The notes under the pieces were generated by a model. That model was given only the letters and a program-made list of their open reading frames with translations, was not told where the DNA came from and searched no databases. This document shows positions 2 to 22,679 of a stretch of 64,000 bases of DNA, piece by piece. How positions within the stretch are numbered: position 1 is the first letter of the stretch; each line of letters begins with the position of its first letter. Origin of the DNA: Alphaproteobacteria bacterium (GTDB lineage: Bacteria; Pseudomonadota; Alphaproteobacteria; SP197); NCBI GenBank assembly GCA_964291265.2, contig OZ219747.1, positions 3,936,001-4,000,000 of the forward strand, in the 5' to 3' direction. The position numbers were made by a program, and so were the translations under genes.

Positions 2-1423
2 GGTGCGGAGGTCGGCAACATCCTCAAGTTCGAAAAGGACTTTCCAGGAGCCACCGTCGTGCGCCTTGAGCGCAACTACCGCTCGACACCACGCATCCTT
101 GCTGCGGCGTCGAACCTCATTGCCCACAACCGCGCCCGGCTCGGCAAGACCCTGTGGACACCCGAAGGTGACGATGCCGGGGAACCCATCGTCGTCCGCG
201 GCGTGTGGAGTGGCGAGGACGAAGCCCATGCCGTGGGCGTCATGGTCGAGAATCTCCACAGGAAGAATCATCCGCTCAACGAGATGGCGGTTCTGGTGCG
301 GGCCGGCCACCAGACACGGCAGTTCGAGGAGCGCTTCATCACGCTGGGTGTGCCCTACCGCATCATTGGCGGCCTGAGATTCTACGAACGCCGGGAGATC
401 CGCGACGCCCTCGCCTACCTGCGGCTGGTGCGTCAGGACGACGACGACCTCGCATTCCAGAGGATCATAAATCTCCCCAAGCGCGGCCTCGGCGAGAAGT
501 CCCTGCTTCCTCTCCGTGACCATGCCCGCGAAACCCGCACCAGCCTGCTCGGCGCCGCGCGCCACGTCGTCAACTCCACGACTCTGCCACCGGCGCGGCG
601 ACGCACCCTGCGCCTCTTCGTCGAGAGCATCGACCGCTGGCGCGCCGAAGCCAGCCGCGCGGCCCCGGCTGAGACAGCCAAGATCATCCTCGATGAATCG
701 GGCTACACGGAGATGTGGCAGAAGGACAAGTCCATCCAGGCTCCGGCGAGACTCGAGAACCTTACGGAACTCGTTGTCGCGCTGGCCGATTTCGAGAACC
801 TCGAGGACTTCCTGGACCACGTGAGCCTGGTCACGGACGGGGATGCCGCCTTCGACGGCGACATGATCAGCATCATGACGCTCCACGCGGCCAAGGGCCT
901 CGAATTCGACACCGTCATCCTCCCTGGCTGGGAAGAAGACATCTTTCCCCACAAACGGGCCCTCGAGGAAAGCGGCAACAAGGGGCTCGAGGAGGAACGC
1001 CGGCTTGCCTACGTCGCTCTCACCCGGGCCCGCCATCGCATTGCCATCTTCCATGCGGCCACCCGGCGGATATACAGGCACACCATGTCCAACCTTCCCT
1101 CACGCTTCCTTGCCGAACTTCCGGGCGAACATGTCCATGTGGACGAGTCCCCCCTCGTCGGCTACCGTCACCAGTCGGAGTTCGGGCACGTCGTCACCGA
1201 CAGCAACTTCTCGCGCACCCTCACCAAACGCCAGCAGCAGTTCCCTTCCCAGGGCGTCCCCTCAACACCCGGCGCCAGCGCTCCGCCACAACCCAACACC
1301 CGCATCTTCCATCAGAAATTCGGATATGGCCGGGTCCTCAGGACCGACGGCGAGAAGCTCGATGTCGATTTCGACAAGGCCGGCCGCAAGAAGATCATGG
1401 CAGCCTTCGTCACGCCGGCATGA
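2..1423 (+). CDS. uvrD: UvrD/PcrA superfamily 1 DNA helicase, 5' truncated by window edge
   Basis: Frame open from base 2 (GAEVGNILKFEKDFPGATVVRLERNYRS); SF1 motifs LERNYRS, MTLHAAKGLEF, EEERRLAYVALTRA; C-terminal HQKFGYG Tudor-like tail. Confidence 0.93.
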   Translation, partial: GAEVGNILKFEKDFPGATVVRLERNYRSTPRILAAASNLIAHNRARLGKTLWTPEGDDAGEPIVVRGVWSGEDEAHAVGVMVENLHRKNHPLNEMAVLVRAGHQTRQFEERFITLGVPYRIIGGLRFYERREIRDALAYLRLVRQDDDDLAFQRIINLPKRGLGEKSLLPLRDHARETRTSLLGAARHVVNSTTLPPARRRTLRLFVESIDRWRAEASRAAPAETAKIILDESGYTEMWQKDKSIQAPARLENLTELVVALADFENLEDFLDHVSLVTDGDAAFDGDMISIMTLHAAKGLEFDTVILPGWEEDIFPHKRALEESGNKGLEEERRLAYVALTRARHRIAIFHAATRRIYRHTMSNLPSRFLAELPGEHVHVDESPLVGYRHQSEFGHVVTDSNFSRTLTKRQQQFPSQGVPSTPGASAPPQPNTRIFHQKFGYGRVLRTDGEKLDVDFDKAGRKKIMAAFVTPA

Positions 1424-2211
1424 CCTGGCAGCTCGAGGCGGAAGACGAGCGGGCACACGACCTCCTCGACGAGTTCGAGCCCCTGTCCCTTTCCCTCTTC
1501 GGCACTCACGTCCAGGCCCTCTTCGCCAGCCGCGAGGAGGCCAGACGCGCACACCGACACCTCGAGGCACGCCTCGGCCTCACACCGTCCCTTCATGAAC
1601 TACCGGCAAGGGACTGGGTCGCGGAGAATGCCCGCTCCTTTGAGCCCCTTGTCATCGGGCCCTTCACCATCGTCCATGACGACCTCCCGGCGAATTCCTG
1701 TACGCGCCTCATCCGCATGAAGGCCGGGGCCGGTTTCGGGACCGGCGAGCACCCGAGCACCGCCGGCTGCATCCAGGCCCTCTCCGCTCTCGATACTGCG
1801 CCCCGCACCGTCCTCGACATGGGATGCGGGTCGGCCATTCTCTCGATCGCTGCCGCCCTCCTTTGGGACTGCGACGTCATCGCCGTGGACAACGATCCCC
1901 TCGCCCTTTCCTTTGCTCAACGCCAGATCTCTGAGAACGGCCTCGCCCATCGTATCCACCTCGTCTGCGCACACGCCTTCAGCGCCTTCTCGAGGGCGCC
2001 CTTCGACCTCCTCGTCGCCAACATCCTGGCACGCCCCCTCATCGACATGGCTCCCGCCATCCACGCTACCAACATCATCCTCTCTGGATTCCTCGAAGAC
2101 CAGTCCGCCTCCGTTCTCGACGCCTTCCGCCAGGCGGGCCATGCGCCACGCGCCACCACTTCCGTCGACGGCTGGACCACGTTCACTCTCACGGCCGATC
2201 ACTCGTGGTAG
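1420..2211 (+). CDS. prmA: Ribosomal protein L11 methyltransferase
   Basis: ATG at 1420 overlaps uvrD stop (ATGA); motifs GFGTGEHPST, VLDMGCGSAILS, FDLLVANILA. Confidence 0.9.
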   Translation: MTWQLEAEDERAHDLLDEFEPLSLSLFGTHVQALFASREEARRAHRHLEARLGLTPSLHELPARDWVAENARSFEPLVIGPFTIVHDDLPANSCTRLIRMKAGAGFGTGEHPSTAGCIQALSALDTAPRTVLDMGCGSAILSIAAALLWDCDVIAVDNDPLALSFAQRQISENGLAHRIHLVCAHAFSAFSRAPFDLLVANILARPLIDMAPAIHATNIILSGFLEDQSASVLDAFRQAGHAPRATTSVDGWTTFTLTADHSW

Positions 2212-2683
2212 ACCTCGCATCTTTCCACGGCGACCGGGAGGACCCACCCCGGCTTGATGGTTCGAATGTCGGAAGAAGCAGTGCTGATGATGAATGACAG
2301 GGAGTCGACACTGACAGAATGCTGCGGCGACCGGCCAGGCACCACAGGATGTTCCCATCGGATCTGTTCACGAAAAGACACTCGTTCACAATCAATGAAC
2401 AGGTTCCGGTATAGAGAGACGGAATCTGACATTGCCGAAACGGGCAGAGGCCCTGTGACGTACCTTTGTCTCGGCAGTGTCAGCAAGTGCAGGCTACGCT
2501 CCCGCGATACAGGATTTTGGTCGCGGCGGGGTCGATGTTCAGGGGGTCCAGTGGTGCGATACGCCCGAGCCTGGTCATCAACTCAAGACGACTGCGCCGC
2601 CAGGCAGGGGCAGGAGCCATGAGGGTGTCGCCTTCGCTCGCTCGCAGGTCACGCCGATGACCGTGCTGGTGCTTCAAGCGACC

Positions 2684-2990
2684 GTTAGCGCTGCTGTCGC
2701 AGCAAGGTGTTCACCAGCACGATGAGCTTGCGTGTCACGGGGACAATCGCGACCTTGTGGGGCCTTGCCGACGGTCTTGAGGCGTTCGAACACGCTTGCC
2801 AGGTCGGCGTTGAAGCGCGCCGCCACGACCATGAACGGGAGATCGCACGGCCTTGTTGCGTCCGCCACGGATACGCCGGGCACCGTGGTGCTGGCCGCTG
2901 TCGGCGGCCATCGGCGCCAACCCGATCGAGACTGCCGAGTTCGGGAATCCGGCAAGGAAGGAGTGCGTCGGCCTGAAGGAGCGATGGAGC
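2684..2990 (-). pseudogene. IS110-family transposase C-terminal remnant, frameshifted
   Basis: Fragments in several frames: GLAPMAADSGQHHGARRIRGGR, AARFNADLASVFERLKTVGK, KVAIVPVTRKLIVLVNTLLRQQR*. Confidence 0.7.
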
Positions 2991-3201
2991 AACGTTGCAG
3001 GCCTGACGTTGAGCGGGTCAAGGAGCGGTCCTCCCTTCCGAAACGAGACCCGCACTGCGGTACAGGCTTTCATGTTTCGGGACAGCCGTGAATGACGTAC
3101 TGTCACCGTTCCCGACGAATTCGGGCATGTCGGACCCATATCGCCCGAACCGAAATGCAACGCGGGAGCACCTTGGAAAGGGGCGACCGCAGGGGGATTC
3201 C

Positions 3202-3975
3202 ATGGCCGAAACCCGCAGAACGAAGAGCCTCGCCATCCTGATCGATGCGGACAACACCAGCGCGAAACACGCCCAACCGATCTTCGACGAGATCGTCAAA
3301 CTGGGCGAGGCCAACGTGCGCCGCATCTACGGCGACTTCTCGGCGGGCCGCCTTTCCGGCTGGGACGGGGCGATCAAGTCCCTGGCAATCCTGCAGCATC
3401 AGCAGCGCAGCAACTCGAAGGGCAAGAATGCGTCCGACATAGCGCTGGTGATCGATGCCATGGATCTCATGTACAAGCGCACCCTCGACGGAGTCGTGCT
3501 GGTGAGTTCGGACAGCGACTTCACGCGACTTGCCCAGCGTCTGCGCGAGGAAGGCCTTGAAGTGTATGGCTTCGGCGAGCGCAAGGCAGTCGAGGCCTTC
3601 CGCAACGCCTGCAACCGCTTCATCTATGTCGAGAACCTTCTGGATGCCGAACCGGAAGAGAAGAAGGTTGGAGCGACACCGGCCAAGACCGCGGCACAGA
3701 AAAAGGATCCTCCGAGCAAGGCCAGAAAGATCATAGTGGACGCGATCGGAGAACCGGATGCCGACGGATGGGAGAATCTGTCCAGCGTCGGGAGTCGCAT
3801 TCAGGGCGCGCATCCCGACTTCGACCCGCGCAGTTACGGATGCGCCAATCTGAGCACGCTGGTAGAAAAGTCGGGCCAGTTCGACATTAGAAAAGACCAG
3901 GGCACCGTCCATGTCCGTCAAAAACAAGATACCGCGCGAAAACGTTCGAGCACCGGGAGGACATCAGCGGCCTGA
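3202..3975 (+). CDS. NYN-domain (PIN-like) protein with C-terminal OST-HTH/LOTUS domain
   Basis: LIDADN, RRIYGDF, KNASDIALVIDAMD, LVSSDSDF; C-terminal FDPRSYGCANLSTLV. Confidence 0.88.
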   Translation: MAETRRTKSLAILIDADNTSAKHAQPIFDEIVKLGEANVRRIYGDFSAGRLSGWDGAIKSLAILQHQQRSNSKGKNASDIALVIDAMDLMYKRTLDGVVLVSSDSDFTRLAQRLREEGLEVYGFGERKAVEAFRNACNRFIYVENLLDAEPEEKKVGATPAKTAAQKKDPPSKARKIIVDAIGEPDADGWENLSSVGSRIQGAHPDFDPRSYGCANLSTLVEKSGQFDIRKDQGTVHVRQKQDTARKRSSTGRTSAA

Positions 3976-3990
3976 TCTCGGCTGGGTTCT

Positions 3991-4440
3991 CCAAGAGTCT
4001 GTTTGGTGACGGCCGGAGTGCCGTCGCCAAGCAGGTTTGGACGAAGGCCGCGCCGTCACGGTGTCACCATGCAGAATGTGTGAAGGAGGTGTTGGTCAAG
4101 GACGCGCGAGGAGTCATGATGTTCGGCCGACGACGAAGGCTGCCGGGCCTGCGGTGCGCGGGCGGTCGCCCCTGGCCAGAGGGGCACGTTCTCCCCTCCT
4201 TCCGCACCGAAGTCACGTCATGAGCACCAGGCAGCCCTCCTCGATGTGCAGAAACTGCGCGATCCTCTCCTGGCGCTCCAGGAGCCAGTCCATGGCGCCA
4301 TGGAGCGCGTCCTCGCTGAGCCCCGCATCAAGGACCCCGCCCAAGGTTCTCACCGCCGCCGCCTCGGCCAGTCCTCATGCCGTGGCGAGTTCGAGGCGGG
4401 CTCCATGAGCCTCGCGGTTATCATGGCCAGCACCTGATCG
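3991..4440 (-). mobile_element. IS1634-family transposase remnant plus probable element end
   Basis: Minus-strand fragments VLAMITARLMEPAS, EDALHGAMDWLLERQERI, DVTSVRKEGRTCP; 3991-4095 is homologous to 12203-12307 in inverted orientation. Confidence 0.65.
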
Positions 4441-4909
4441 CGCCTTGTCGAGGGCTTCGGGCCGATCAGCTTCATGGGGCGGCATGGCACCGGTTTGCGC
4501 ACTCAAGGAGCACAGGCGATCAAGGGCCGAGGACATCGCGACGCTGATCGATCCGTCGCAGGAAAAGCGGAGAAGCGATGGCTGAACACCACCTGCGCGA
4601 GACGAAAATGGCCAGGCCCCTGACGCCTCGGCCGTGCGGAAATTCTCGTTGCTGACCCCCGACGACGACAGTTTCGATGACAACTGCGACGCCGCAGAGG
4701 ACTGCTCGTCTGACGGCTGAGCCACCATACCCTACCTCTCCCCGAGAGTCTCCACGCTTGTCGGTCGACAGCCAAGGATGGCGTCATGTACCCCCGCTTT
4801 GTCGAACACCTGATCCGCCAGGCCTGGCGAACATCAAGATCGGTTCTGATCTGTGGCTCCCGGCGATCGGCGAAGCTCGCAAAGCAATCTCCGGTTCGCA
4901 GGCGATACC

Positions 4910-6994
4910 TCAACCTGTCTGATCCAGTCCGAACAGGCCCATGAGCTCGTCACGGTTGAGACGTGTCGACAGATTGAGCGACACGTCATCGATCAGATCG
5001 TCGAACAAGGCCTGCTTTTGCTGAAGGATGGTGTCGATGCGCTCCTCGATTGTGTCTTCGCAGGTGTACTTGATCACATTGACCTTGACGGTCTGGCCCA
5101 TGCGGTGACTCCGGTCCTCGGCCTGCCGCTCCACGGCGGGATTCCACCATCGGTCGAGATGAAACACGTAGGACGCTTCCTGAAGGTTGAGACCAACACC
5201 CCCGGCACGCAACGAAATGATCAGGGCCTTGTGCCGCTCGCTCTCCTTGAACTTCTCGATGAGATCCATGCGTTCGGCAGGGGGCACCGCGCCGGTCAGG
5301 CACAGCGGATGAAACTCCCGCAGGTGATGTGCCGCGGCCGCGACGCCCGATGTGTTCCCGGTGTACTGCGAAAAGATCAGCGCCTTGTGCCCCTGCGCGG
5401 TCAGCTTGCCGAGCCTGTCATGGATGTCGTCGAGCTTGCTGGATGCTCCCGTTCTGGGATCGACATTGCAGATTTGCTTGAGACGCGTGATCAGCTCCAG
5501 AACATGATGGATCGTCGCCTCCCTGCCCAGCGACCTCAGATAGACAACACCGTCATGCTCGGCCTGATCGTAGCTCTTTCTCTGCTGTGGTTCGAGCGGG
5601 ATCCTGAGTTTGATCTCCAGCTTGGGAGGCAGGTCAACAAGCACATCGGCCTTCCGCCGCCGAAGCTGAAGTTCGCGGTGACGCTTCAACAACGAGGCGT
5701 CGGGACACAGGCGAACATCAACGTCGTCGGCGTCGTGATCGACAAACTCCATGATCGACGCCAGTTCATCGATGTTGTTCTCGATCGGAGTACCCGTCAG
5801 TGCCCATGAACGCGCTCTCGGCAGGTCTTTCGCCGCAGCGCTCGTCGGGTTGCGATTCTTGATCTTCTGCGCTTCGTCGAGAACGACCACGTCCCACGTC
5901 CTGCGTACCGGTCCCAGGTTGCGAAGGACATCGGCATCCATGCGCAGCACATCATAACTCACGAGAAGCACATCCTTGCGCGCTCGCCACTGCCATATGC
6001 GGTTGTCGGCCGAGCCGCGTATGATCATGGCGCTGATATCCGGCGCCCAACGTTCGATTTCCCGGCGCCATTGATCCAGAACACCGGCAGGGGCAACCAC
6101 GAGAGCCGATCTCAAGTCACCCTTCGCCTTGAGTATTCTCAAGGCGGCAATGGTCTGGACGGTCTTTCCAAGACCCATGTCATCCGACAACAGCAGCCTG
6201 TCCATCGTGACAAGCGTCTCGACACCCTGACGCTGGAAGGGCATCAGTTCACCCGACCATTTCAGACCGCCTTCCGGAAGGGCAACGGGGGCTGACCGGA
6301 CCCTTCGGGCGAGAACCATCCACAGTCGTTCGGCCAGACCGCGCACGGGCTCGTCCGCTTCTGGCGAGCCCGGCACAGATGAAGAAGACAATCCCCGCTG
6401 GCGCGACATCTCTCTCCACTTGTCGATGGCGCGGGGCGTGAGCGACATCAGCGCCACCACGCCCTGGATGTCGTTGGCAGTGCGGATCCGGGAGTCAGCG
6501 TAGGCCTCCAGAAGAGCCATCGTCACTCTCTCCAAGGGTTCGAACGGCTCGTCCGCATCCACGATATCGTCGATGAGTGAACCGGGAAGAGAAGGTGTTG
6601 CCGGTGGATCCGTCACCCACTGCAACCACTCTTGGGCGCCGGTGGCTCGGGGCTCCGGCGAGCGTCCCGAAGGAGGCATGATGAAGCAACAGGGTATGCC
6701 GAGGTTGAGGCTCCCGAGAAAGAATGGCGGTTCATCTTCCGAGGAGACAATGAGCAATGCGGGAGTAGTCGTGGTGGCCTCGAAGAGAGCACGACTCAAG
6801 GATACGAGGGCGTCGTTCCAGTCATCGTCCTGGTACGCCATTCGGACAAAACCGAACCCTAGTGGTTCACCTTGCGGCGAGGCTTCGAACAGTCCTGCAA
6901 GAACTCCGTCACCCGCCGGGTCGACGATGATCTGCAACCAGGCAATGGACGATGGATGGTTGTCCGGAACCGTGTTGCGAAAGGGAATGGGCAC
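4910..6994 (-). CDS. SNF2-family helicase/ATPase with uncharacterised N-terminal region
   Basis: LSDDMGLGKT, VVLDEAQKIKN, LTGTPIEN, GGVGLNLQEA, DRWWNPAVERQAEDRSHRMGQ; GTG 6994 chosen as start to avoid overlap with the upstream gene (uncertain). Confidence 0.9.
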   Translation of the reverse strand: MPIPFRNTVPDNHPSSIAWLQIIVDPAGDGVLAGLFEASPQGEPLGFGFVRMAYQDDDWNDALVSLSRALFEATTTTPALLIVSSEDEPPFFLGSLNLGIPCCFIMPPSGRSPEPRATGAQEWLQWVTDPPATPSLPGSLIDDIVDADEPFEPLERVTMALLEAYADSRIRTANDIQGVVALMSLTPRAIDKWREMSRQRGLSSSSVPGSPEADEPVRGLAERLWMVLARRVRSAPVALPEGGLKWSGELMPFQRQGVETLVTMDRLLLSDDMGLGKTVQTIAALRILKAKGDLRSALVVAPAGVLDQWRREIERWAPDISAMIIRGSADNRIWQWRARKDVLLVSYDVLRMDADVLRNLGPVRRTWDVVVLDEAQKIKNRNPTSAAAKDLPRARSWALTGTPIENNIDELASIMEFVDHDADDVDVRLCPDASLLKRHRELQLRRRKADVLVDLPPKLEIKLRIPLEPQQRKSYDQAEHDGVVYLRSLGREATIHHVLELITRLKQICNVDPRTGASSKLDDIHDRLGKLTAQGHKALIFSQYTGNTSGVAAAAHHLREFHPLCLTGAVPPAERMDLIEKFKESERHKALIISLRAGGVGLNLQEASYVFHLDRWWNPAVERQAEDRSHRMGQTVKVNVIKYTCEDTIEERIDTILQQKQALFDDLIDDVSLNLSTRLNRDELMGLFGLDQTG

Positions 6995-7029
6995 GGCGGC
7001 TTCTGTACGAATTCTGCCTTCGGAAAAAT

Positions 7030-8295
7030 CTACACCGACCCGTCTCCGGGGTCGTGTTCCACGGTGGTGTCCTCGCCATAGGAAGTGCTGTGCGCCAGGA
7101 ATTCCGTGTCGGGAAGGTCTGCGATATGCAGACGCCTCAGATCCCATTCATTGATTGCGGCGCGGACCTTGTAGCGCATGCGTCCCATGAACCCGGCACC
7201 CCCTGCTGTTGTCTGCGATGGCGGTGGCTCCCAGCCATAAGCCCGCTGGTAGAGGTGGCGCAGGGATTCCATGGTCGCCTTCACATAGTCGTTGTCCGGA
7301 ACAGCGAGTGCCACGCACTCGCGCTCAAGCAGACGCATACCTGTTTCTGCGCGACTCGAGATGTCACGGTAACGTACATTCTGCTCCAACCTTGGAGGCA
7401 CATAGTCCCTGTCCTTGCGCTGCCCGTCCGGACTGATGATGGCGGAGGCAAAGTCCGACGTGACGGCTCCCACCACGACAAGGCCAGGGTAGATCTCTCC
7501 ACGGGCGCGGCCCATCCAGCGGGCCATCTCGGCATAAGCCCGGCCACGCTGCAAGATCGAGTACGACCCGATCAGTTCAAGCTCGTCGAGCAACACCACC
7601 CATCCATTGTAACCGGCGCACTTGATCAACTCCACCATGAACCGCAGTCGCTGGGGCATCAGGGCAGCCGCCCCTGGCGCACGCAAGCTGTAGCTACCCT
7701 GTTCACCAACCTCTCGCAGCCCGCGCTTGACCTTGCCAATCACAATTCGTTCCCCTGCCCAGAATGACTCGATATCTGCGCGCAGAGCGTTGTCTTCAAG
7801 TTTCTCGTACACGCTCAGGCTTGCCGGAAGGAGAGGGCTCAGGACACCACGGGACGCTTCCTGATCGGCCCACCCGGAAAAATCACCGTATTCACTGGAC
7901 TTCCAGTCGATCGCATGACAGAGCTTTTCGATGAAACGGCCCCTGCCGTCCGGTGTCCGGCCGTTTTCCATGGCAGACGTGAACACCTTCCCGAGATCAT
8001 AGAACGGCGTTTCCTTGCTGATCGACACCTTGCTGCACACAAATCCCCGAGATAGTGCGAGGTGTTCCAGATGCTCCAGAAGGTGCGATTTCCCGGTTCC
8101 GAAATCCCCGGAAACAAGCATGCCGCCGGATACTTCCGCCTGGTTCTCTGTCGCCTGCAGCAACTCCAGAAATCGATTCTCGACAGCCGGCTGACTGCAG
8201 CCCAGCTCCCGAACCGCAGCCCTGTTGGGAACACCGTTGCGCAGGGCTTCCACCGCCATCCGGGCATCAAGAGTACCGCTTCCATCGATCGCCAT
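7030..8295 (-). CDS. DUF2791 / BrxD-like P-loop ATPase, intact motifs
   Basis: N-terminal VEALRNGVP, Walker A GDFGTGKS, Walker B VVLLDELE, VVGAVT; GAGAGGG RBS before ATG 8295. Confidence 0.8.
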   Translation of the reverse strand: MAIDGSGTLDARMAVEALRNGVPNRAAVRELGCSQPAVENRFLELLQATENQAEVSGGMLVSGDFGTGKSHLLEHLEHLALSRGFVCSKVSISKETPFYDLGKVFTSAMENGRTPDGRGRFIEKLCHAIDWKSSEYGDFSGWADQEASRGVLSPLLPASLSVYEKLEDNALRADIESFWAGERIVIGKVKRGLREVGEQGSYSLRAPGAAALMPQRLRFMVELIKCAGYNGWVVLLDELELIGSYSILQRGRAYAEMARWMGRARGEIYPGLVVVGAVTSDFASAIISPDGQRKDRDYVPPRLEQNVRYRDISSRAETGMRLLERECVALAVPDNDYVKATMESLRHLYQRAYGWEPPPSQTTAGGAGFMGRMRYKVRAAINEWDLRRLHIADLPDTEFLAHSTSYGEDTTVEHDPGDGSV

Positions 8296-8309
8296 GACAG
8301 ATGTCCCTC

Positions 8310-9260
8310 TCAGGAAAGCCTGACTAGGGCGGCGACCGGGTTGACGACATTGCGGTCGCGAACATCGTCCATCACCCGGGTGCGCAGGGCGCTGTAGATG
8401 CCCCAACCCCTCTGGGCATTCTCGTCCACGAACGTCTCGTCCGTCACCACAGCCAGCAAGCACGCCTGCAACCGGTCAGTGTTGTCGATGAACTCCCGCA
8501 GCACTTCGTAGTGATCGACGGTCATCGCCCTGGTGTAGTAGCGCAGACCGTCACGCGGATTGCGCGCCACCAACACCCGGGCGTTGTCGAGAAGAATGAC
8601 CGTTCCGGCGTGGCCGGCAAGGCGGATCCAGTAGAGTGCCGACTCGATGAAGTAGCGGGCGGTGGTCCGGTTGATGGGCGTGTACACTTCGAAGTGCCGG
8701 ACATTCCCGATGCGGGTGTTGGTCCCGGTCAACCAGTCGATGAGTGGTTGCCCTTCATCCCCGCTTCGATTTCGGGTCATCACGCACAGATGGTTCATCG
8801 CAACACGGAAGGCCCGGACCATGTCCGGGTTCCGCTGGACCCTGTCATGGAGAACGGGCCGCAGTTCTGTCAGGACATCCGACGGCTCAAGACCACTCGA
8901 CTCGGCAACGCCACCGACAACATCCAGAACATGCCGAGGGTCAATGCCGTCGACACGAAAGCCCCTTTCGCGCAGGATTCCCAAGGTAACGCGACGCGCC
9001 AAAAGAGGCCAGTCGAGTTGCGACGCGACGGCGAAGAAGATGTCCTGAGGCATGTGGACCCGGCAGCTCGCTGCATCAACCTTGACGAACACGTGCCCGC
9101 GTTCACCACAGCGCTCGCCAAGAGCCGTCGCAAGGGCCGGCCTTCGATCCTCTCGGGCGATGGCAACCTTGACAGCCGCGCCTCCTTCGCCGATCAAAGA
9201 TGACAGGTATTCGCGATCGATGACGTCGAGCCACTCATCGATCGTGATCGTGTCCGTCAT
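8310..9260 (-). CDS. DUF2791 / BrxD-like paralog with degenerate ATPase motifs
   Basis: EWLDVIDREYL..GGAAVK start with no GxxGxGK; Walker B-like VILLDN; YEVLREFIDNTD and GIYSALRTRV typical of the family. Confidence 0.7.
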   Translation of the reverse strand: MTDTITIDEWLDVIDREYLSSLIGEGGAAVKVAIAREDRRPALATALGERCGERGHVFVKVDAASCRVHMPQDIFFAVASQLDWPLLARRVTLGILRERGFRVDGIDPRHVLDVVGGVAESSGLEPSDVLTELRPVLHDRVQRNPDMVRAFRVAMNHLCVMTRNRSGDEGQPLIDWLTGTNTRIGNVRHFEVYTPINRTTARYFIESALYWIRLAGHAGTVILLDNARVLVARNPRDGLRYYTRAMTVDHYEVLREFIDNTDRLQACLLAVVTDETFVDENAQRGWGIYSALRTRVMDDVRDRNVVNPVAALVRLS

Positions 9261-10051
9261 CGTCGCGCCCCGGTGAAGCTGATGCCGTAGTATTCGGCAC
9301 TGTCTCCCTCGGGCCCGACAAACGTGAAGACATCCGACGAACGTCGGCGTGTTCCCGTTGACGACGGAAAGGACACCTCGGCGCCCTTCCTGGTCCGATG
9401 GGGGCCTTCAGACTGGAGGATGTAGAGGTCCCGCGCAAAGTCACTGCGGCCATATTCACGCGCCGCTCCCGGCAACGCCGTCATCAGTCTGTACAGTCTC
9501 ATCAAGGGCACCACGTGTGGGCTCAACAGGTCACGGGGTTCATCGCTCGTGACATCGCGATAGACGTTGTACAGCGACTCGAGAAACCGCGCCGACTGGA
9601 AGCTGGCCGTCTTCTGCTGTTCCTTCAGAAGGTGCTCCACCAGAAAGGACGGCCGTACCGTCGACACCTTCTTCCTGTCCACCCTGACGGCCCGCTCCGA
9701 AGCCAGCACCCGAAGGATCGATGGATAGCACATGAACAGACCATCGCGTTCATGGAGTTTCAGGCCGCCCTTCACGGCAGCTACCCTGAATTCCTCGGCA
9801 AACCGCTTCTCGAAGTACTCCCGTTCTTCCTCCTCTCCATACACCCAGCTCTCGCAGGCATCCGCAGCCCTATCCGCCAACTCCGCCACCGCATCATCAA
9901 GGTTGCTCCCGGCTCGCCTGACACCGGCGATGTTCCCTGTCTGCGCGGCCTTCACCAGGGCCCGAACCTGCGACAGCACCCCCTTGGCAGCCTTCTCCGC
10001 CACCCCGGCAGCCTCTTCCGTCTCGCGCAACGCCTCTTCCAGACTCTCCAC
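9257..10051 (-). CDS. Hypothetical protein, first gene of the ATPase/SNF2 operon
   Basis: 264 aa, helical N-terminus, C-terminal FLESLYNVY...EYGRSDFARDLY; ATGA coupling to the next gene. Confidence 0.75.
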   Translation of the reverse strand: MESLEEALRETEEAAGVAEKAAKGVLSQVRALVKAAQTGNIAGVRRAGSNLDDAVAELADRAADACESWVYGEEEEREYFEKRFAEEFRVAAVKGGLKLHERDGLFMCYPSILRVLASERAVRVDRKKVSTVRPSFLVEHLLKEQQKTASFQSARFLESLYNVYRDVTSDEPRDLLSPHVVPLMRLYRLMTALPGAAREYGRSDFARDLYILQSEGPHRTRKGAEVSFPSSTGTRRRSSDVFTFVGPEGDSAEYYGISFTGARR

Positions 10052-10246
10052 GTCACAATCACCCCTTTGCCGCCCCCGGAGACTACAGCGACCGCCCCGG
10101 CCTACGCAACACCGACCACAGTTCGGGGTGTACGTCGGGATTGTGAGATTTGAACAAAGCGTGCGGTCTGCGGTCGTTTTTGGGTATTGTTCTGACAGTG
10201 TATTAGGCTTTCAGAATGGAGGCCCCGATGACACTGCCCCCCCGAA

Positions 10247-10648
10247 TTGTCCGAGCTCAACCTCAGGCGCCGCGACATCCAGAACCAGCTTGCCGACCTT
10301 GGCGACCTGCGCCCCGGCTCGCTGACGCCGCGTTTCCGCAAGTGCGGCAAGCCCACCTGCCACTGTGCCGCCCAGGGAGACCCCGGTCACGGACCGAGCT
10401 GGTCGTTGACCTGGTCTGTCGAGGGCAAGACCCAAACCCGGATCATCCCCGCCGAGGCGGTCGAGGAAACCCAGGCGCAGATGGCCGAGTATCAGCGCGC
10501 CCGTGCTCTTATGCGTGAACTGTTCGAGGTCAGCACCCGGATGTGCGACGCGCAACTCGACGCCATCAAGACGATTCCAAAAAACACTTCGTCGCGGCGC
10601 TCGAACCGGAAGTCCGCCACGAGATCGTCAGCGAAGCGGCGAGCCTGA
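10247..10648 (+). CDS. ISKra4 accessory ORF (DUF6788-like)
   Basis: GSL..RFRKCGKPTCHC..GHGP motif; start uncertain; A6C slippery run near 10579 at the junction with the transposase frame. Confidence 0.7.
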   Translation: MSELNLRRRDIQNQLADLGDLRPGSLTPRFRKCGKPTCHCAAQGDPGHGPSWSLTWSVEGKTQTRIIPAEAVEETQAQMAEYQRARALMRELFEVSTRMCDAQLDAIKTIPKNTSSRRSNRKSATRSSAKRRA

Positions 10649-11926
10649 TCGGTGTCGGCGTGCTTGACGACTTCCAGGCGATCGAGACTGAGGCCCGGCG
10701 GGTGGCATGGCAGATCATGGGGCAGGCGGTCGCCGCGAAGCTCAACGCCGATCATGCCGACGATCAGGGCCCCTGCCTGTGCGGGTGCGGCGGCAAAGCT
10801 CGCTTCGCCGGCCGCCGGCCCAAGACCTTCATCACCGCCTTGGGCCCGATGACGCTGGAACGGGCCTGGTATCACTGCGACGGCTGTCACTCAGGCTTCA
10901 GCCCGCGCGACCGCGCTCTTGGCATGGAGAACACCTTCCTGTCGCCGGCGTCGCTGCGCATGATCGGCATCGCTGCCGCCAGGATCAGCTTCGAGGGCTC
11001 CAGCGCCCTGTTGCGCGAGTTGGCCGGCCTCGCCGTCGCACCGAAGACGGTGGAACGCCACGCCGAGGCTCTCGGACGTGAGATCGCAGGCGACGAACAC
11101 CGCGTCATCGAACCCGAGTTCGGCGATGCCCCCATCCTCTACCTCGGTCTCGATGGCACCGGCGTGCCGGCACGCAAGACCGAAGTCGCGGGGCGTGCGG
11201 GCAAGCAGCCCGACGGCGGCGCCAAGACCCGAGAGGCCAAGCTCGCGGTGGTGTGGTCGGCGGAAACCACCGACCAGGACGGCCGCCCCGTGCGCGATCC
11301 CGGTTCCTCCAGCGACAACGCGGCCATCGAAACCATCGCCTGCCGGGATACCGACGCCGAGCCCGCGCCCTTCGCACGGCGTATCCTGCGCGAGGCCCAG
11401 CGCCGCGGCTTCGACAGCGCAGCGCGCCAGGTCCTGCTCGGCGACGGTGCGCCATGGATAGGGAACTTCGCCAACGAGCACTTCCCCGACGCTGTCCAGA
11501 TCGTCGACATCTTCCACGCCAAGGGCCATCTGTTCGATGTCGCCAAGGCGATCTACAACACACAGCAGCGAGATCGGCGAACGATGGGCCAGAAAGCGGC
11601 GCGAGGAGCTTGATGAGGGCCGCGTCGACGACGTGATCGCCGCCCTGCTGAGCCATGCCGCAAGCTGCGAGGAAGCCCGCAAGAACGCCGAGTACTTCGC
11701 CACCAACCGGGAGCGAATGAACTATCCGAGGTTCAGGGCGATGGGCCTGTGCGCTGCCTCCGGCGTGGTCGAGGGAGGCTGCAAGAACATCGTCGGCACC
11801 CGCCTCAAGCAAGGCGGCATGCACTGGACCGTCGACGGCGCCAACGCCATCATCGCCCTGCGCTGCGCCGTCGAAAGCAACCGCTTCGACGACTTCTGGG
11901 AACGGCGCGCCAGCGCAAGAGCATGA
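10580..11926 (+). pseudogene. ISKra4 transposase with a frameshift near 11560
   Basis: LDGTG, LGDGAPWI, DIFHA in frame 10543..11613; SGVVEGGCK, RLKQGGMHW in frame 11537..11926; shift at ACAACACACAG. Confidence 0.8.
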
Positions 11927-12202
11927 ATCTCACAAATCAGACGTACACCCCACAGTTCGTCACCGACCTTACCCGAACCATGTGATTCGATGTCGCCACC
12001 ACCGATCCCATCATCCGTGCAGGTGACTGCCGCAGCCTCACTCCACACTTTCAAGGAATGTGCTCTCAAATGGAAGGGGAAGAGTCCCAAGGCCGGTCAT
12101 CAGGGTGACGACATGACCTTCGTTCTCTCTCCAGCCGCCACGACGCCCATGTTCCTTGCAAAGCCGGCTGAAGACCCTGGCGACATTCCCCGGCAACATT
12201 CC

Positions 12203-12307
12203 AACAGGTTTTTTCACACTTTCTGCATGTCGACACCGGAGCGGCGCGGCCTTCGTCCAAACCCGCTTAGTGACGGCCCTCCGGCCGTCACTCAGCAGAT
12301 CTTTGGG
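12203..12307 (+). repeat. Second, inverted copy of the ~105-bp IS1634-like end containing a GTGACGGCCGGAG(T/G)GCCGTC hairpin
   Basis: Reverse complement aligns by eye with 3991-4095 (about 80% identity); a shorter third copy lies at ~37007-37042. Confidence 0.8.
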
Positions 12308-12575
12308 ACTCGATGTTCTTCACGCCCACGAAGCAAAGCCCCACCGCAGCAGAGTCGTCTGGATCAAGCCCTTGGCAATCCATCTCAAAGAGATCACCCA
12401 GCTTTACGATCGGAAAGCTCACTCCCCCACCGCTTCCTGCACCGCTCCGGCAAGGTTGTTCATCTTTGCAAGAATTTTGGTCTCAATACCGCGCAGTTTC
12501 TCCAGACTCTCCAACGTGTCGTGGTGCTCCATCGTGGCACGGTTCGGTGGCCGATGGCGTTTGGTCCTGGAGAAA
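12308..12575 (-). pseudogene. Type I RM relic: hsdM 3' end plus hsdS 5' start
   Basis: KRHRPPNRATMEHHDTLESLEKLRGIETKILAKMNNL* overlaps by GTGA with MSFPIVKLGDLFEMD..FVGVKNIES, which is cut by the IS-end repeat. Confidence 0.6.
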
Positions 12576-12590
12576 AGCGGGAACCCCACA

Positions 12591-12815
12591 CTAATTGCGT
12601 TGCCCCACAACGTCTGGGTTAGAGTTTTCCAATTCAGCGATTCGGTCAAGAGCTTCGTCCAGATCCGCCGCAAGACTATCCATCCGGCTAGAAAATCGCC
12701 GGGAAACGTAAAATCCGACCAGTGCAATAGCCACTGGAATGACAATGGCAACTATTCCGATCAGCAGTGACAAGCCTTGCAGGTACAACGCAACAGGTAC
12801 GCCTTCGCACATCAT
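12591..12815 (-). CDS. Small single-pass membrane protein with coiled-coil tail
   Basis: Hydrophobic LSLLIGIVAIVIPVAIALVGFYV followed by MDSLAADLDEALDRIAELE; starts 4 nt after the GIY-YIG stop. Confidence 0.5.
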   Translation of the reverse strand: MMCEGVPVALYLQGLSLLIGIVAIVIPVAIALVGFYVSRRFSSRMDSLAADLDEALDRIAELENSNPDVVGQRN

Positions 12816-12819
12816 TTGA

Positions 12820-13032
12820 TCACCGGCGCCGGGTAGGACGGCCTTTCGCAGCCTGTTCGCGCTCCCACTTGAGGGCGGCATCTCTGGTCGTCGCGTGCCC
12901 GACTTTTTCGATATCGCCACTACCGAAATCGTTTCTATGCTCGGTTTCCCGACGCTCAAGATCATTCGTGATGCCCGTGTGAACGATCCTTCGGTTCCGT
13001 TTGAAGTGATATTTGTAAGTGTCGCGCGCCAT
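12820..13032 (-). CDS. Minimal (70 aa) GIY-YIG nuclease-like protein
   Basis: TYKY..IVHTGITNDLERRETEH..ALKWE; GGAGG RBS before ATG 13032. Confidence 0.7.
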   Translation of the reverse strand: MARDTYKYHFKRNRRIVHTGITNDLERRETEHRNDFGSGDIEKVGHATTRDAALKWEREQAAKGRPTRRR

Positions 13033-13061
13033 GATCAGTACCTCCAATACCAGTAGTAACC

Positions 13062-13262
13062 TTAATAGTGGCATGGAGTCAAAATGTCAAGTCCCCGCAT
13101 CGCGTCTCCCAATTCGTCGATCTGGCCGAGGATTTGGGTCTCGATGCCGCGCAGTTCATCCAGAATCTCAAGCGGGTCGCGGTACACGACATTGGCGCGG
13201 CTCGGTGGCCGGTGGCGTTTGCCGCTGAGGTTGAAGTCGGCGGCACAGATGGCGTCGTCCAC
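13062..13262 (-). pseudogene. Second hsdM 3'-end remnant
   Basis: AADFNLSGKRHRPPSRANVVYRDPLEILDELRGIETQILGQIDELG, paralogous to 12419-12575. Confidence 0.6.
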
Positions 13263-14419
13263 GGCGAACCATCAGTACACGGTCCGGTCCTCGTTCGGGT
13301 CGCGTCCCTGCCATTGTGCTTACCGCGCGTCGGTCGCAGAACGCTTAGACGAGGCAGGGCATGTGTAAGCGTTCGGCCGTTCGGTGATGGCTGATTTTGG
13401 TTGGTTTGGGTCTTGCTGACTATCGTCTGAGAAAGTGCTGGTAAACTCGTTTGGTCTCGATTATGGTCGAGGCCATGAAGACTTTTGCCGAGACGCGCGG
13501 AGCGACACAGCAGCTGACGGGAGGTGGTGACGGCCTATGTCGGGCGTCAGTGGCCTTGTCATGCGAGGCGCCTGACTGGCGTGCGCTCTATGAGGCGGAG
13601 CGGGTTCGTGCGGATGCGGCGGAAGCGCGTATGCGTGACCTGCGCCGTGCGAAGAATTCTGCCCGTGCCCGTGCGGGCACATTCAAGTTTCATCTCGACC
13701 GCACTCGTGATCAGCTCAAGGAGGCTCGCCGGGAGGTGAAGCGTGGACAGGCCCGAGCGGAGGCGCTGGAGCGGGAAAGGGACGCTCTGAAGCTCAAGAA
13801 CGCTGAACAGGCGAGCGAGCTGAGGAATCTCCGCGGGACGCGTGCCAAGCACGCGACGGCGCGCTTCGGGTCGAAGAGCGAGAAACGGAAGAAGAAGGAA
13901 GGCACCGGGAACAAGCGGGGTCAGCAACCCGGCAAGAGCGGCCACGGGCGCACTCCGCGTCCGAAGCTCAAGGAGAAGCACGAACGCCATGATCCACCGG
14001 CATCGCAGCGCACGTGCCCGTGTTGCGGCGAGCCCTATGTGGCCAACGGCAGCCACGAGACCTCGATCATGGAGGTCCATGTCAAGGCTCATATCCGGCG
14101 GATTGAACGTGGGCGTTGGCGCCGTGGTTGTCAGTGTTCGTCGGCGCCTGCGGAGATCATCGCGCCGCCACCTTTGCGCTTGCTTGCGAATACCCCCTTC
14201 GGCATCAGTGTCTGGGAATGCGTGCTCTATGAGCGCTTCGCCTGCTTGCGTCCCCTGCGCCGGGTCTCGCGATGGCTGGAAGACCAGGGACTGCCGATGG
14301 CGCCGGGAACGATCGCTGGCGGCATGAAGAAGATGACGCCGATGTTCGCGCCTCTCGCTCAGGCCATCCTCGATCATCAGAACCGGCTGACGGTGCGCCA
14401 CGGCGACGAGACCAGCTGG

Positions 14420-16338
14420 GTCGCGGTAGGGATGCGCATTGCTGCGCACCCCCCGCACAGATCCGGACATGGACGTTAATCCATCCGGCTCCTACCTCGG
14501 GTGCTTGACGGTAAACCGCTGGTCCGGCCATGGGTGGCGGATGGAGACGCGCGGCCAAAGAAGCTCGGTCATGCGCTCCAATCGCTTCCAGTCAAAGCAG
14601 TGGCGCTGGGAGCGGCGGCGGATCGCTCGCAGCCATAGGCGTTGCAGCCTTTGGCGGAACGTGCGCAGCCATCGGGTCGACCCCGGAACGGCGAAGTAGT
14701 TGGACCAGCCATTGACAACTCGCCCAAGCCACATGCCGACCTCCCATATGTCGTGATGCCGTCGATTGCGAAGCACCTCCTCGATGCGCGCCAGGGTCCT
14801 TGCGACCCGTTTTGCGACCGGCTTGCGACCAAGCCTGAAGCGTCCTCTCCGGGTCTCCGTGCAGAAGTGCGTGAAGCCCAGGAAGTCGAACGTCTCCGGC
14901 CTGCCCGCCCCGCGAGATCGCCGGTTCGCCTTGGCAAACCGTCCAAACTCAACGAGACGGGTCTTGTCCGGGTGAAGGGTGAGACCAAAGCGGTCCAGCC
15001 TCTCCCGAACGTCGCGAAGGTATGTCTCCGCATCCCGCTTATGCTGGAACCCGACCACAATATCGTCCGCGTAGCGGACAATGATCGCTTTACCGTTCGG
15101 AACCTTCGGACGCCATGCCTTGTGAAACCACAGATCGAGCACGTAGTGCAGAAACACGTTCGCCAGGCAGGGGCTGACAATGGCGCCCTGAGGCGTGCCC
15201 GCACCGGTGTCGCTCCATGATCCGTCGGTCATGACGCCAGCGTTCAGCCACTTGCGGATCAGACGGATCACCCGCCTGTCGCCAATGCGATGCTCCAGGA
15301 ACTTGATCAACCAATCCCTCGGGATTGTGTCGAAGTACCCCTGAATGTCCGCGTCGACTATCCAGTTGACCTTGCGCCGCTCGATCCCGAACGCCAGGGC
15401 GTCGAGAGCGTCATGCGCCCCTCGGCCCGGTCGGAACCCGTAGCTGAAGCCAAGGAACTCCACCTCATAAATCGGTGTCAGGATCACATCCACAACCGCC
15501 TTCTGGACGATCTTGTCCTCCAGTGCGGCAATCCCGAGCGGTCGTGTCCCGCCGTCCGGCTTGGGTATCTCAACCCGCCGAACCGGCGGCGCCCGGTACG
15601 CTCCCCCACGATGCAGGCGCGAGTGCAGATCAAGCAAGCGCTCGTCCAGACCCTCGCCATACGCCGCCCACGTCACGCCGTCGACACCTGCCGAGGCTTC
15701 CTTCTTCAAACCGAAGTAGGCCGCCCGGAGCGCGTCCGGCGTAATGTGATGGAAGAGTGCAGTGAGACGCTCCTTCGGGTTCCTCTCTGCAGCTTCCCGT
15801 ATCCGGTCCGCCGCCTGTGGCACACTTGCCCGACACTGCGTTCGGTGCGTGCTTTGGCGTCCCGGATTCCCCTTGGTTGAGGCCCTTTCCTCCAGCGACT
15901 CCGCAGAAGCTGACGCTCCCTTGTTCGCCGCCTTCACCGGTCTTACGGCCCCATCCGACTTCTTCAAACCGTTCCTCATAGGCTTCGGCTTTCTCCTTTC
16001 CCTACACGGTCCCGCCACGACAGGCGGGATAGTTCGAAGACCTCCCAGGGTCCCAACAGAAGGCGTGCGGACGTGCATGGGTTCTCCGACACCGCGGGGC
16101 TCGCCGACATCTCACCAAATCGATGCCTGCGATGTTGCCTTCGACCGATGCGAAAGCCTCGGCACCCCGAACAACGGACTTTTCGGTGCTCATTAGCCCT
16201 GCCCATCCGTACCGCTACCGACGCTTCGCCTGCCCCCTCGCGGGAACCGACGCACGGCTCGCGGAGAAACGTGGTTTGGTTACTCCTTCGTTTCAGGGGA
16301 CTTTCACCCCCTACCTTCCGCCAGTTCGCCTGGCACAC
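14420..16338 (-). mobile_element. Group II intron, full length, antisense to the IS66 transposase
   Basis: 5' GTGTGCC; domain V GAGCCGGATGGATTAACGTCCATGTCCGGATC; DVI hairpin ending CCCTACCGCGAC; putative EBS1 CGCAUC (16147-16152) pairs with IBS1 GATGCG (16339-16344). Confidence 0.92.
14492..15979 (-). CDS. ltrA: Group II intron reverse transcriptase/maturase without En domain
   Basis: IPKPDGGTRPLGI, SYGFRPGR, GTPQG, VRYADD, FDFLGF, X domain; stop abuts domain V; start uncertain. Confidence 0.92.
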   Translation of the reverse strand: MRNGLKKSDGAVRPVKAANKGASASAESLEERASTKGNPGRQSTHRTQCRASVPQAADRIREAAERNPKERLTALFHHITPDALRAAYFGLKKEASAGVDGVTWAAYGEGLDERLLDLHSRLHRGGAYRAPPVRRVEIPKPDGGTRPLGIAALEDKIVQKAVVDVILTPIYEVEFLGFSYGFRPGRGAHDALDALAFGIERRKVNWIVDADIQGYFDTIPRDWLIKFLEHRIGDRRVIRLIRKWLNAGVMTDGSWSDTGAGTPQGAIVSPCLANVFLHYVLDLWFHKAWRPKVPNGKAIIVRYADDIVVGFQHKRDAETYLRDVRERLDRFGLTLHPDKTRLVEFGRFAKANRRSRGAGRPETFDFLGFTHFCTETRRGRFRLGRKPVAKRVARTLARIEEVLRNRRHHDIWEVGMWLGRVVNGWSNYFAVPGSTRWLRTFRQRLQRLWLRAIRRRSQRHCFDWKRLERMTELLWPRVSIRHPWPDQRFTVKHPR

Positions 16339-18449: not shown

Positions 18450-20033
18450 TCAGCACGGCAACGTACGGGCTCTTGAACTGCGTGTTTCCGGTGGGAGCCC
18501 GAACGCCTCGCCATAGATGCGCTCGATGCGTTGCGTTTCCTCATCCGTCAGCATCTTGAATTCTCCCTCGCGCGCCCGCCTCGAAAGGCGCCCGGCATTT
18601 TGATGCAGAAACCGAAACAGAAGGTCGGCGGTGCGATCAGGCATGTCGGCGACCCCTTGAAGGTGCCCCGTGAAATGGTCATGGCGCATGAGAAAATCAG
18701 CTTCGTTCGGCAGTTCTTCCTCGATTGTCCTCTTCACGCATTCGAACAGATATTCCGCATGGGGTGTTGCATCGAAAAAGCGATAGAAGTCCGCCGTGTC
18801 GTTGAGCACCCGGACATTGCCGCGCTCCGTCTGCTCCCAGTCGATGAATGGCAGGAGCCGCCGCGAGTGGTCTTTCAGGATCGCGCCATAGGCCTCGATC
18901 CGATCCAGGATTGCAACGGATACCGGGAACACGACCCCCCCGGGGTTGAAGCCCCGCTGTGCCAGGACGTGATGAATGAGATAGCGATGGATGCGCCCGT
19001 TTCCGTCGGCGAAGGGGTGGATGTACACGAAACCAAAGGCCAGTACGGTCGCTGCGATGACAGGATCGAGAGCGGTTGCAGGACCCCGGTCGAAGGCGAC
19101 CATGCCAGCGATCAGGGACGCGAGGTCCTCGTGCCGTGCGCTGATGTGGTCAGGGAGAGGTGTACCCGTGTTCCGCTCGTGCTGGCCTACGAATCCGCCT
19201 TCGGTGCGCAAGCCAAGTGGCACGAACCGATCGTCGCCGATGACGATCTTCTGCAGCCGCAGCAGTTCATCGAGGGTGATGGGTTGCCGGCCGGCCTCAC
19301 CTATGGCCCGGCCCCACCGCTGAATGCGGTTCTGCGGCGGGCGTTCGCCCTCGATCGCGTAGCTCGACCTGGAATCCTTCAGCAGCAGGAAGGCGGCCGC
19401 ACGAGCCAGCAAGTCTGCCGGGACCGCGGCAACGACCGCCCGGGCCCGCTCCGCGAGATCGTGGTTCACCAACTCTTCGAGTGCCTCCGTGTGGCGGACC
19501 AGCGGACAGAAATCCGCTGTGCCCGGCATGTTGTTCCTGACGCGATGCCGTGCAGAGTTCTCGCCCCGGACCGCCCACTGCTGCCGCGGATTGACGGCCG
19601 GGACGTAGTCGCCCCTTGTGGCATCCGGAAGGTTCAGGCGTCGCCCGGTGAGCCACTCATAGAGAAACCAGAGTCGCCGGGCATAGCTGCCCGTGGGCGT
19701 TCTCCGGACGATGGATTCCATCTCGGCCGCATCCACCGCAAGGAAGAGGCGCTTCAGAACCGCAAGATCGAGTCCCTCATACTTGAGCGCGAAGGTCAGG
19801 TGCGCTTCCAGCGTGGGGCGTGGGGCATGGCGGGGGGTGAGAAGGCGCCATCCTCCCCCCTCCCGGATCCTGTGCCGCTCACCCGTGGCGGACAATGTCC
19901 GTGGCAGGGGAACGTGCAGGCTGCAGGCATCGATCAGGGCGGCATAGCCGACCGGCGTCGCCCGTTCCGGCAACCGCCTGTCCTGAAGAACCGTGATCGG
20001 CCCTGAAAAGCGATGTCGCATCGCGTCACTCAT
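18450..20033 (-). CDS. Fic-family protein with extended N-terminal domain
   Basis: Fic motif HPFADGNGRIHR; FALKYEG, RRLWFLYEWLTG and SSYAIEGE segments. Confidence 0.88.
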   Translation of the reverse strand: MSDAMRHRFSGPITVLQDRRLPERATPVGYAALIDACSLHVPLPRTLSATGERHRIREGGGWRLLTPRHAPRPTLEAHLTFALKYEGLDLAVLKRLFLAVDAAEMESIVRRTPTGSYARRLWFLYEWLTGRRLNLPDATRGDYVPAVNPRQQWAVRGENSARHRVRNNMPGTADFCPLVRHTEALEELVNHDLAERARAVVAAVPADLLARAAAFLLLKDSRSSYAIEGERPPQNRIQRWGRAIGEAGRQPITLDELLRLQKIVIGDDRFVPLGLRTEGGFVGQHERNTGTPLPDHISARHEDLASLIAGMVAFDRGPATALDPVIAATVLAFGFVYIHPFADGNGRIHRYLIHHVLAQRGFNPGGVVFPVSVAILDRIEAYGAILKDHSRRLLPFIDWEQTERGNVRVLNDTADFYRFFDATPHAEYLFECVKRTIEEELPNEADFLMRHDHFTGHLQGVADMPDRTADLLFRFLHQNAGRLSRRAREGEFKMLTDEETQRIERIYGEAFGLPPETRSSRARTLPC

Positions 20034-20452
20034 GAATTTCGACGGCGATGGTCCCCTGTATCTGGCAATTTCATGATAGGGAGTGCAAGACGCCTGTGCA
20101 AGGGCTGTCTGTGACTCTCTTGTTGCTCGCCAGATCGTCATGTGAGTGACTTTGACTCTTGCGCGTCTGGGACGGGCTCGACGATCGTCAGGCAGAGGGG
20201 CGCCGTGCACTCCTTCCAGTTCAACGACGTCAGGCATGCGAAGGTCCTGACCGTATTGATCCGGATGCTGGCGTGGAATGGTTCTCTTGACGGTGTTCCT
20301 GAGGTGGCAGCCCGATTGCCAGCAATTTGGGATCAGGTCATCGCCTGATTCGTTCACCCCTGCAATCATGGCCGAACCTGATGATCCGTCATGGTTGAGG
20401 GCCTGCGGTTCAATCCCGGATTCGGGCTTGTTCCCGATCAGGAGATGACGTG

Positions 20453-22645: not shown

Positions 22646-22679
22646 CAGCTGCCCCCCGGATCTCCCCTCATGGAACGGC

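Follow-up and report, generated by a model that had tools for sequence, protein, structure and literature searches.

The 64,000-nucleotide stretch analysed here (the window; contig OZ219747.1 of an Alphaproteobacteria bacterium, positions 3,936,001 to 4,000,000) carries a cassette of four genes, A to D, that is real, conserved and unnamed. Genes B and C encode a degenerate and an intact ATPase of the BrxD family, and D combines a SNF2 translocase with an N-terminal domain of predicted Endonuclease V (EndoV)-like fold (Table 1). The window's copy is one of the nuclease-less forms of an operon that is conserved and has spread horizontally. We consider it reasonably probable that the cassette is an undescribed, putative defence module that protects against incoming phage or plasmid DNA.

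Table 1. The cassette, its principal motifs and domains, and neighbouring features in the window
Feature	Position	Strand	Comment
Gene A	9257-10051	minus	264 residues, GTG start, unnamed family
Gene B	8310-9260	minus	316 residues, degenerate BrxD-family AAA+ domain
Gene C	7030-8295	minus	421 residues, BrxD-family AAA+ ATPase
C Walker A (GDFGTGKS)	8086-8109	minus	
C Walker B (LLDELE)	7582-7593	minus	
Gene D	4910-6994	minus	694 residues, SNF2 translocase with EndoV-like N-terminal domain
D N-terminal domain (residues 1-178; E where it is a separate gene)	6461-6994	minus	Predicted EndoV/UvrC/PIWI-type RNase H fold
D SNF2 translocase core	4910-6274	minus	Motifs intact; protein ends directly after, without Mrr nuclease
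NYN gene	3088-3975	opposite to cassette	About 1 kb from cassette
N6-methylase C-terminal relic, short	13065-13271	minus	About 3 kb from cassette
Fic protein	18450-20369	minus	PADLOC PDC-S24 candidate system, 6.6e-203; about 8 kb from cassette

As the initial annotation had it, the four genes are intact, co-oriented and tightly packed, with A and B overlapping in an ATGA at 9257-9260 and gaps of 14 and 35 nucleotides separating B from C and C from D. The reading frame of D is already open from an ATG at 7147; relatives of D start at a PIP motif, supporting the GTG at 6994 as the start. The genome, which is 100% complete, has a single copy. Comparison of the parts of A, B, C and D with four to five close relatives gives ratios of non-synonymous to synonymous substitution (dN/dS) of 0.09-0.32 for each, and every part of the cassette is under purifying selection. 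A contig from a public sequencing run covers positions 3900-10154 with zero differences to the window and a second strain (approximately 98% identical) is represented by a contig covering 4268-10125 with 96 differences, all runs being from one study and the best one possibly the source sample. No promoter-like site was found at the cassette, terminator counts are close to chance, no RNA data set containing it was listed and the guanine plus cytosine content is not distinct.

The order of the genes is conserved in homologues, a property that the initial annotation had proposed as a check. In the best 80 of 202 genome loci (individual loci carry L numbers) A-B-C-D is found in 68 and A-B-C in 10; in one locus (L033) a transposase replaces B and C, and one lies at a contig edge. 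Since 68 of 80 loci share the order it is more than chance. These loci come from Pseudomonadota, Chloroflexota, Acidobacteriota, Binatota, Gemmatimonadota and Thermodesulfobacteriota. A metagenome scan that used a more distant alignment gave the best 80 of 589 loci, of which 23 had at least 4.5 kb of room for the order to be scored; all 23 display A-B-C-SNF2, at 30-55% identity to the window.

The distribution is patchy and crosses phyla. Gene A is present in 8 of 22 congeners and the uvrD-prmA flank of the window is shared by L004 only among the seven congener loci inspected, so that the cassette is patchy within the genus and sits at different sites. A quick, midpoint-rooted tree of gene C alone (113 rows, partial genes left out) has the phyla interleaved, a starred branch of 13 rows mixing three of them, and places the nuclease-less form in a well-supported branch of 75 rows and six phyla. 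No true match to the cassette occurs in 400 other genomes of the phylum; in two other phyla matching genomes number 24 of 351 and 10 of 351, centre genomes and weak matches counted in. The carriers are taxa that we take to be associated with marine invertebrate microbiomes. Gene A has no match among 72,556 plasmids and 50,697 phages, gene C has none in plasmids and a search of IMG/VR returned nothing; a plasmid or phage location was therefore rejected.

Both ATPases match PF10923 (BrxC_BrxD) beyond the family cut-off, B at 1.1e-9 and C at 3.9e-17, with scores of 31 and 52 bits for the equivalog model NF033438, the cut-off of which is 350. In PADLOC, C matches BrxD (4.2e-14) and, over residues 44-96 only, SngB (2.3e-6), and BrxC models match it solely at the Walker A stretch. 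An active and inactive pair of BrxD-like paralogues had been proposed, one with GDFGTGKS and LLDELE, the other lacking Walker A and carrying LLDN; both sets of motifs are found, and together with the PF10923 matches they confirm a live and a dead partner. In C, residues Lys69, Asp237, Glu238 and Arg374 are invariant in 57 of 57 sequences, the last being the likely sensor-2. In B the lid is absent too, and the Walker A column has no GxxxxGK among the 14 commonest patterns in 131 sequences. Arg295 of B (codon 8376-8378) is invariant in 59 of 59 sequences and, in a joint alignment, lines up with YxALxxR, a motif of five single-copy BrxD/SngB-type proteins. From this position and the established anatomy of AAA+ proteins we read Arg295 as an arginine finger.

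Five distant loci inform on how the pair arose. Their first ATPase gene has Walker A in five of five, Walker B in three and YxALxxR in all five, and their second lacks YxALxxR in all five. The first gene forms a decay series, with both Walker motifs intact in L224, L226 and L228, Walker A intact and Walker B altered in L223 and L225, and both lost in the window, the arginine-finger motif being retained throughout. Judged by these motifs B is a recent BrxD paralogue, because the first gene of the distant relatives keeps Walker A and B. A crystal structure reveals that the inactive AAA+ protein BrxB supplies Arg182 to the ATP pocket of BrxC and raises its ATPase rate (PMC13326643). Complementary retention of motifs and the analogy with that structure make it likely that B and C form a heteromer in which B completes the ATP site of C.

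D is assigned to SNF2, with matches to PF00176 (SNF2-rel_dom, 1.6e-47) and PF00271 (Helicase_C, 3.3e-18) and helicase motifs at residues 271, 373, 400, 594 and 624. The best PADLOC match is ZorD (4.7e-79), in the helicase part; the NCBIfam ZorD model gives a score of 141 against a cut-off of 1,500. The N-terminal domain is predicted to adopt an Endonuclease V/PIWI-type fold, structure tools assigning the RNase H-like fold of EndoV to domain E. Sequence-level tests of the EndoV link failed and it rests on structure prediction; Pfam has no match for the N-terminus of D or for stand-alone E, and PF04493 has none in the window's genome. The catalytic aspartates of EndoV we take to lie on strands 1 and 4, and the EndoV motifs VAGVD and LLIDGHG are found in L171. 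In our register, set without residue-level superposition, the strand-1 position of domain E is lysine or arginine in 97 of 105 sequences (Gln21 in the window) and the strand-4 position leucine in 83 of 105 (Ser84 in the window). On this alignment the canonical EndoV aspartates are missing from domain E. Acidic residues are kept elsewhere, at positions 43 (100 of 105), 87 (105 of 105) and 152 (103 of 105).

In relatives E is a separate gene of 185-190 residues, and 720 E homologues were found. In the branch with five genes, 14 of 22 complete SNF2 genes carry an Mrr nuclease at their end, some of these loci being near-duplicates. Among 20 further regions, hand-picked from 32 non-centre matches in the two other phyla with the most divergent included, SNF2-Mrr occurs in four, SNF2 without Mrr in six, an Lhr-type helicase in four, Mrr without SNF2 in one and no downstream helicase in two, with three cut off. 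In L224 and L226-L228 distant A-like genes stand before two BrxD-family genes and a helicase of Lhr/BrxHI type; that of L224 matches BrxHI at 5.3e-103 and SngC at 1.4e-82. The helicase of L226 (7192-13086), L227 and L228, of approximately 1,960 residues, joins an N-terminal DEAD/Lhr-type part to a C-terminal Upf1-like part (AAA_11/AAA_12). L233 has, after E, a gene for 248 residues (7647-8390) with an Mrr match and no SNF2 core; the nuclease can therefore persist after loss of the motor. Given the varied helicases and nuclease behind A-B-C, the constant core is A with two BrxD-family genes, and motor and nuclease are exchangeable. The SNF2 partner, in place of a Ski2/Lhr-type helicase, was thus correctly given for the window's branch; the distinction breaks down in the distant relatives of A, which pair with the Lhr/BrxHI type.

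Three loci show other arrangements. In L235 A-B-C is immediately preceded by a separate BrxD-like gene and an Lhr helicase (1-2894) and is not followed by D, and in L113 a DUF433 gene and its partner are inserted between C and E (7324-7967). A congener without A (L199, G006:C10) has another tandem BrxD cassette at 9601-15699 on the minus strand, encoding a UvrD-like helicase of 809 residues, a 363-residue protein without assignment and two PF10923 proteins (430 and 487 residues), both with Walker A and B and only the first with YxALxxR. Kinship of the 363-residue protein with A was not borne out, with an hhalign P of 0.056 and a hidden Markov model score below shuffled controls.

Gene A has no match in Pfam, PADLOC or NCBIfam. 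Its homologues of near length number 747, and at 50% identity there are 816 representatives. The structure model (predicted local distance difference test score 87) has a helical hairpin (residues 1-69), an alpha/beta meander (73-145) and a C-terminal domain (153-260), for which the order of helices and strands in the secondary structure suggests a winged helix. Fold searches of the PDB were empty or swamped by hairpin matches, residues 70-264 having no fold match; a sequence search of the PDB gave helical bundles only, an Atlas search unnamed clusters only and a viral structure library nothing under E 0.001. As the fold matches are empty or filled by the hairpin we do not call A a new fold. 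No longer fused form of A was found, which is weak evidence. A is likely a scaffold or a DNA sensor.

The nearest characterized ATPase-helicase dyads to the cassette are parts of defence systems. BrxD-family ATPases, with a role described as uncharacterised, are found in type-2 bacteriophage exclusion (BREX) and in Shango, and BrxD, of origin recognition complex (ORC)/Cdc6 type, is tightly linked to the helicase BrxHI, for which it is proposed as the loader (PMC12839542). Shango is a system against phages that has one such ATPase and a helicase, composed of TerB-like SngA, the ATPase SngB and the DEAD/DEAH helicase SngC (10.1101/2022.11.11.516204). The cassette resembles it as a small stand-alone operon with a non-enzymatic first gene, a PF10923 ATPase, a superfamily 2 helicase and no methyltransferase. 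It differs in that A is of an unrelated family, the ATPase is duplicated as a dead and live pair and the helicase is SNF2 with an EndoV-like domain. TerB-like SngA has no counterpart in the PADLOC results for A, and PF15615 (TerB_C) is absent from the genome in a search that found it, as a positive control, next to a BrxD-family gene present as a single copy in G214. The 25 of 43 PADLOC matches listed do not include SngC.

The type-2 BREX dyad likewise pairs a BrxD-family ATPase with a helicase, and distant cassette relatives have a BrxHI-like helicase; the cassette differs in having two ATPases, a SNF2 helicase and no BREX core gene. A stand-alone module without a visible BREX core had been suggested, and the complete genome has 0 matches to PglZ (PF08665) in a search positive in 2 of 14 controls. 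PglX, PglY/BrxC and PglW are not among the four genes, nor do they recur among the neighbours of the 80 loci. In type-1 BREX, BrxB-BrxC sets an inactive AAA+ protein beside an active one, as proposed here for Arg295 of B and C, but C has 421 residues compared to approximately 1,200, the cassette lacks a methylation module and B is a BrxD paralogue. SNF2-nuclease fusions (HmaA) defend in Hma (PMC11232893) and ZorD of Zorya type I is a SNF2 helicase with a C-terminal nuclease (PMC11890865). The five-gene relatives share this SNF2-Mrr layout; no ZorA/B/C or HmaB/C match occurs among the four genes, however, and the window's D has no nuclease. MANTIS (Gao_RL) has four genes, comprising an AAA+ ATPase, a co-regulator and a helicase-nuclease, and is defined by an adenine methyltransferase (10.64898/2026.09.23.753747), which distinguishes it and DUF499 BREX-related systems from the cassette. 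Membership of type-2 BREX, Shango, Zorya and MANTIS was rejected for want of PglZ, TerB-C, ZorA/B/C and a methyltransferase, respectively. A full match to a described system is absent from the defence libraries and the literature searched, and no description of the gene set was found there, including in the available part of 10.1101/2025.09.30.679545; supplementary tables, which may include it, lay outside the search. By analogy the cassette works like a sister of Shango and of the BrxD-BrxHI dyad, the exchange of SNF2 for Lhr/BrxHI-type helicases tying it to Shango and type-2 BREX.

How might such a module work? Protein A would bind or sense DNA, or provide a scaffold. Dead B would lend its arginine finger to live C, the two making an ORC-like ATP switch that loads or activates the SNF2 motor together with the EndoV-like domain it carries, by analogy with the proposal for BrxD and BrxHI (PMC12839542). 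In the Mrr versions the nuclease would travel along target DNA on the motor, cutting in the manner of ZorD or HmaA. In the window's version DNA may be blocked or stripped without cutting, or a host nuclease may be recruited; no effector for it was identified in the window. We favour defence because the gene order is conserved, the spread is patchy and cross-phylum, the cassette is rare and under selection, Mrr fusions occur and Shango, Hma and BrxB-BrxC offer analogies. A more ambitious version, which we hold to be rather unlikely, is that A-B-C is a self-sufficient, methylation-independent, ORC-like heteromeric sensor and loader for interchangeable motors (SNF2, SNF2-Mrr, Lhr, Lhr-Upf1-like) and that the EndoV/PIWI domain of the nuclease-less branch, with relocated acids Glu43, Asp87, Glu152 and Glu163, is a nuclease of a new kind or reads modified bases of phages.

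The neighbours named in the initial annotation as fitting a defence island (NYN RNase, type I restriction-modification relic, Fic) are present, the relic being a short N6-methylase C-terminus, and are loosely spaced, scattered among fragments of insertion sequences (IS) and of group II introns. A RecD2 helicase gene (20453-23005) lies directly upstream of Fic, and one also stands upstream of the cassette at L032. On the minus strand at 12820-13074 an open reading frame of 78-84 residues, GIY-YIG-like by eye and without a Pfam or NCBIfam match, sits between similar short stretches (approximately 12419-12530 and 13065-13271), the upstream one matching the N6 DNA methylase C-terminus. Further off, approximately 49 kb from the cassette, 58550-63981 on the minus strand holds an MmeI-type restriction-modification gene (59307-62138) and an AAA-ATPase/PD-(D/E)XK gene (62860-63981). 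An IS-like element directly upstream of A (10247-11926), multi-copy by read depth, shares 67% identity with the element found in place of B and C in L033 (10993-12622). Single loci stand beside restriction genes (L005, L146, L153 and L236); in L236 the genes on either side of the cassette (3-3159 and 9907-10812) are those for a type I restriction subunit, an HNH protein and a canonical Mrr.

Several observations weigh against a role in defence or against the mechanism outlined. The island context finds no support when the genes within approximately 5 kb in 20 carrier genomes (115 genes) are set against 115 others, taken at a distance of 1 Mb: strict defence genes occur in 3 of 20 flanks (a CBASS cyclase; MmeI and GmrSD; an AAA_21 ATPase) and 3 of 20 controls (MmeI; HsdR; GmrSD and HEPN), or 6 and 4 of 20 with toxin-antitoxin genes counted. 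We caution that this test is small, set in a defence-rich background and classified by eye, and that the gene caller missed genes, one pair giving none. The cassette contains no methyltransferase or other evident mark to tell self from non-self, and no methyltransferase recurs among the neighbours of the 80 loci. A-B-C persists without D at 10 of 80 loci; an E homologue was absent from five of five such genomes in a search without a positive control, and A and C are still under selection there (dN/dS 0.18-0.34). In the five-gene branch 8 of 22 complete genes lack Mrr, with four more loci cut off; where E is fused to SNF2, as in the window, an Mrr tail is found in 0 of 67 complete D genes, two further loci being broken or cut, and the 80 genome loci have no Mrr match at all. 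Profile comparison of B and C is weak (probability 27%), and C may activate itself because it keeps arginine or lysine at the finger position (residue 302; lysine in 59 and arginine in 55 of 114 sequences).

The principal competing explanation, possible though clearly less probable than defence, is an accessory module for DNA repair or genome maintenance, in which the EndoV-like domain would recognize DNA that is damaged, deaminated or branched, and the ATPase pair would serve to load a remodelling helicase. Repair is also among the roles of SNF2 and Lhr helicases. The predicted EndoV/UvrC-type fold, the unenriched flanks, the dispensable nuclease and the strong conservation, with long retention in lineages such as Caldilineaceae, are all consistent with this, but a repair function accords poorly with patchiness within one genus, rarity in the phylum and an optional Mrr fusion, and the nearest characterized ATPase-helicase dyads are defence systems.

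The absence of an Mrr tail throughout the window's branch might alternatively mean that the copy is a non-autonomous remnant or helper, which has lost its Mrr effector and either depends on further defence proteins of the host or is in slow decay. Unlinked Mrr-like genes are present in the genome, D is absent from 10 of 80 loci, a transposase has displaced B and C in L033 and frameshifts or stops occur at L008, L016, L035, L069 and L080. We regard this as improbable, as all parts are under purifying selection and the nuclease-less form spans six phyla in its 75-row branch. A module for replication, segregation or transfer of a mobile element, with an ORC/Cdc6-like initiator and a helicase, is largely disfavoured and very unlikely: transposase or reverse transcriptase genes are found in 4 of 20 flanks and 0 of 20 controls (two controls having relaxase-type genes) and IS fragments lie on both sides of the cassette in the window, but the plasmid, phage and IMG/VR searches were empty and neither an integrase nor a relaxase family is recurrent next to the 80 loci.

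The cassette, for which we continue to favour defence, reduces the BrxD module to three to five genes and adds two unannotated protein families. It displays the evolution of the first ATPase as a series, in which Walker B and then Walker A are dropped and the arginine finger is kept, and it makes both the idea of BrxD as a helicase loader and the dead and live pair directly testable by point mutants. If the module serves repair it would still be an unannotated operon spread over many uncultured phyla. If the more ambitious version given above holds, the cassette would make a tractable model of BrxD function and a defence system of a new class, and should it protect against phages without a methyltransferase or nuclease, that would mean a new mode of discriminating self from non-self.

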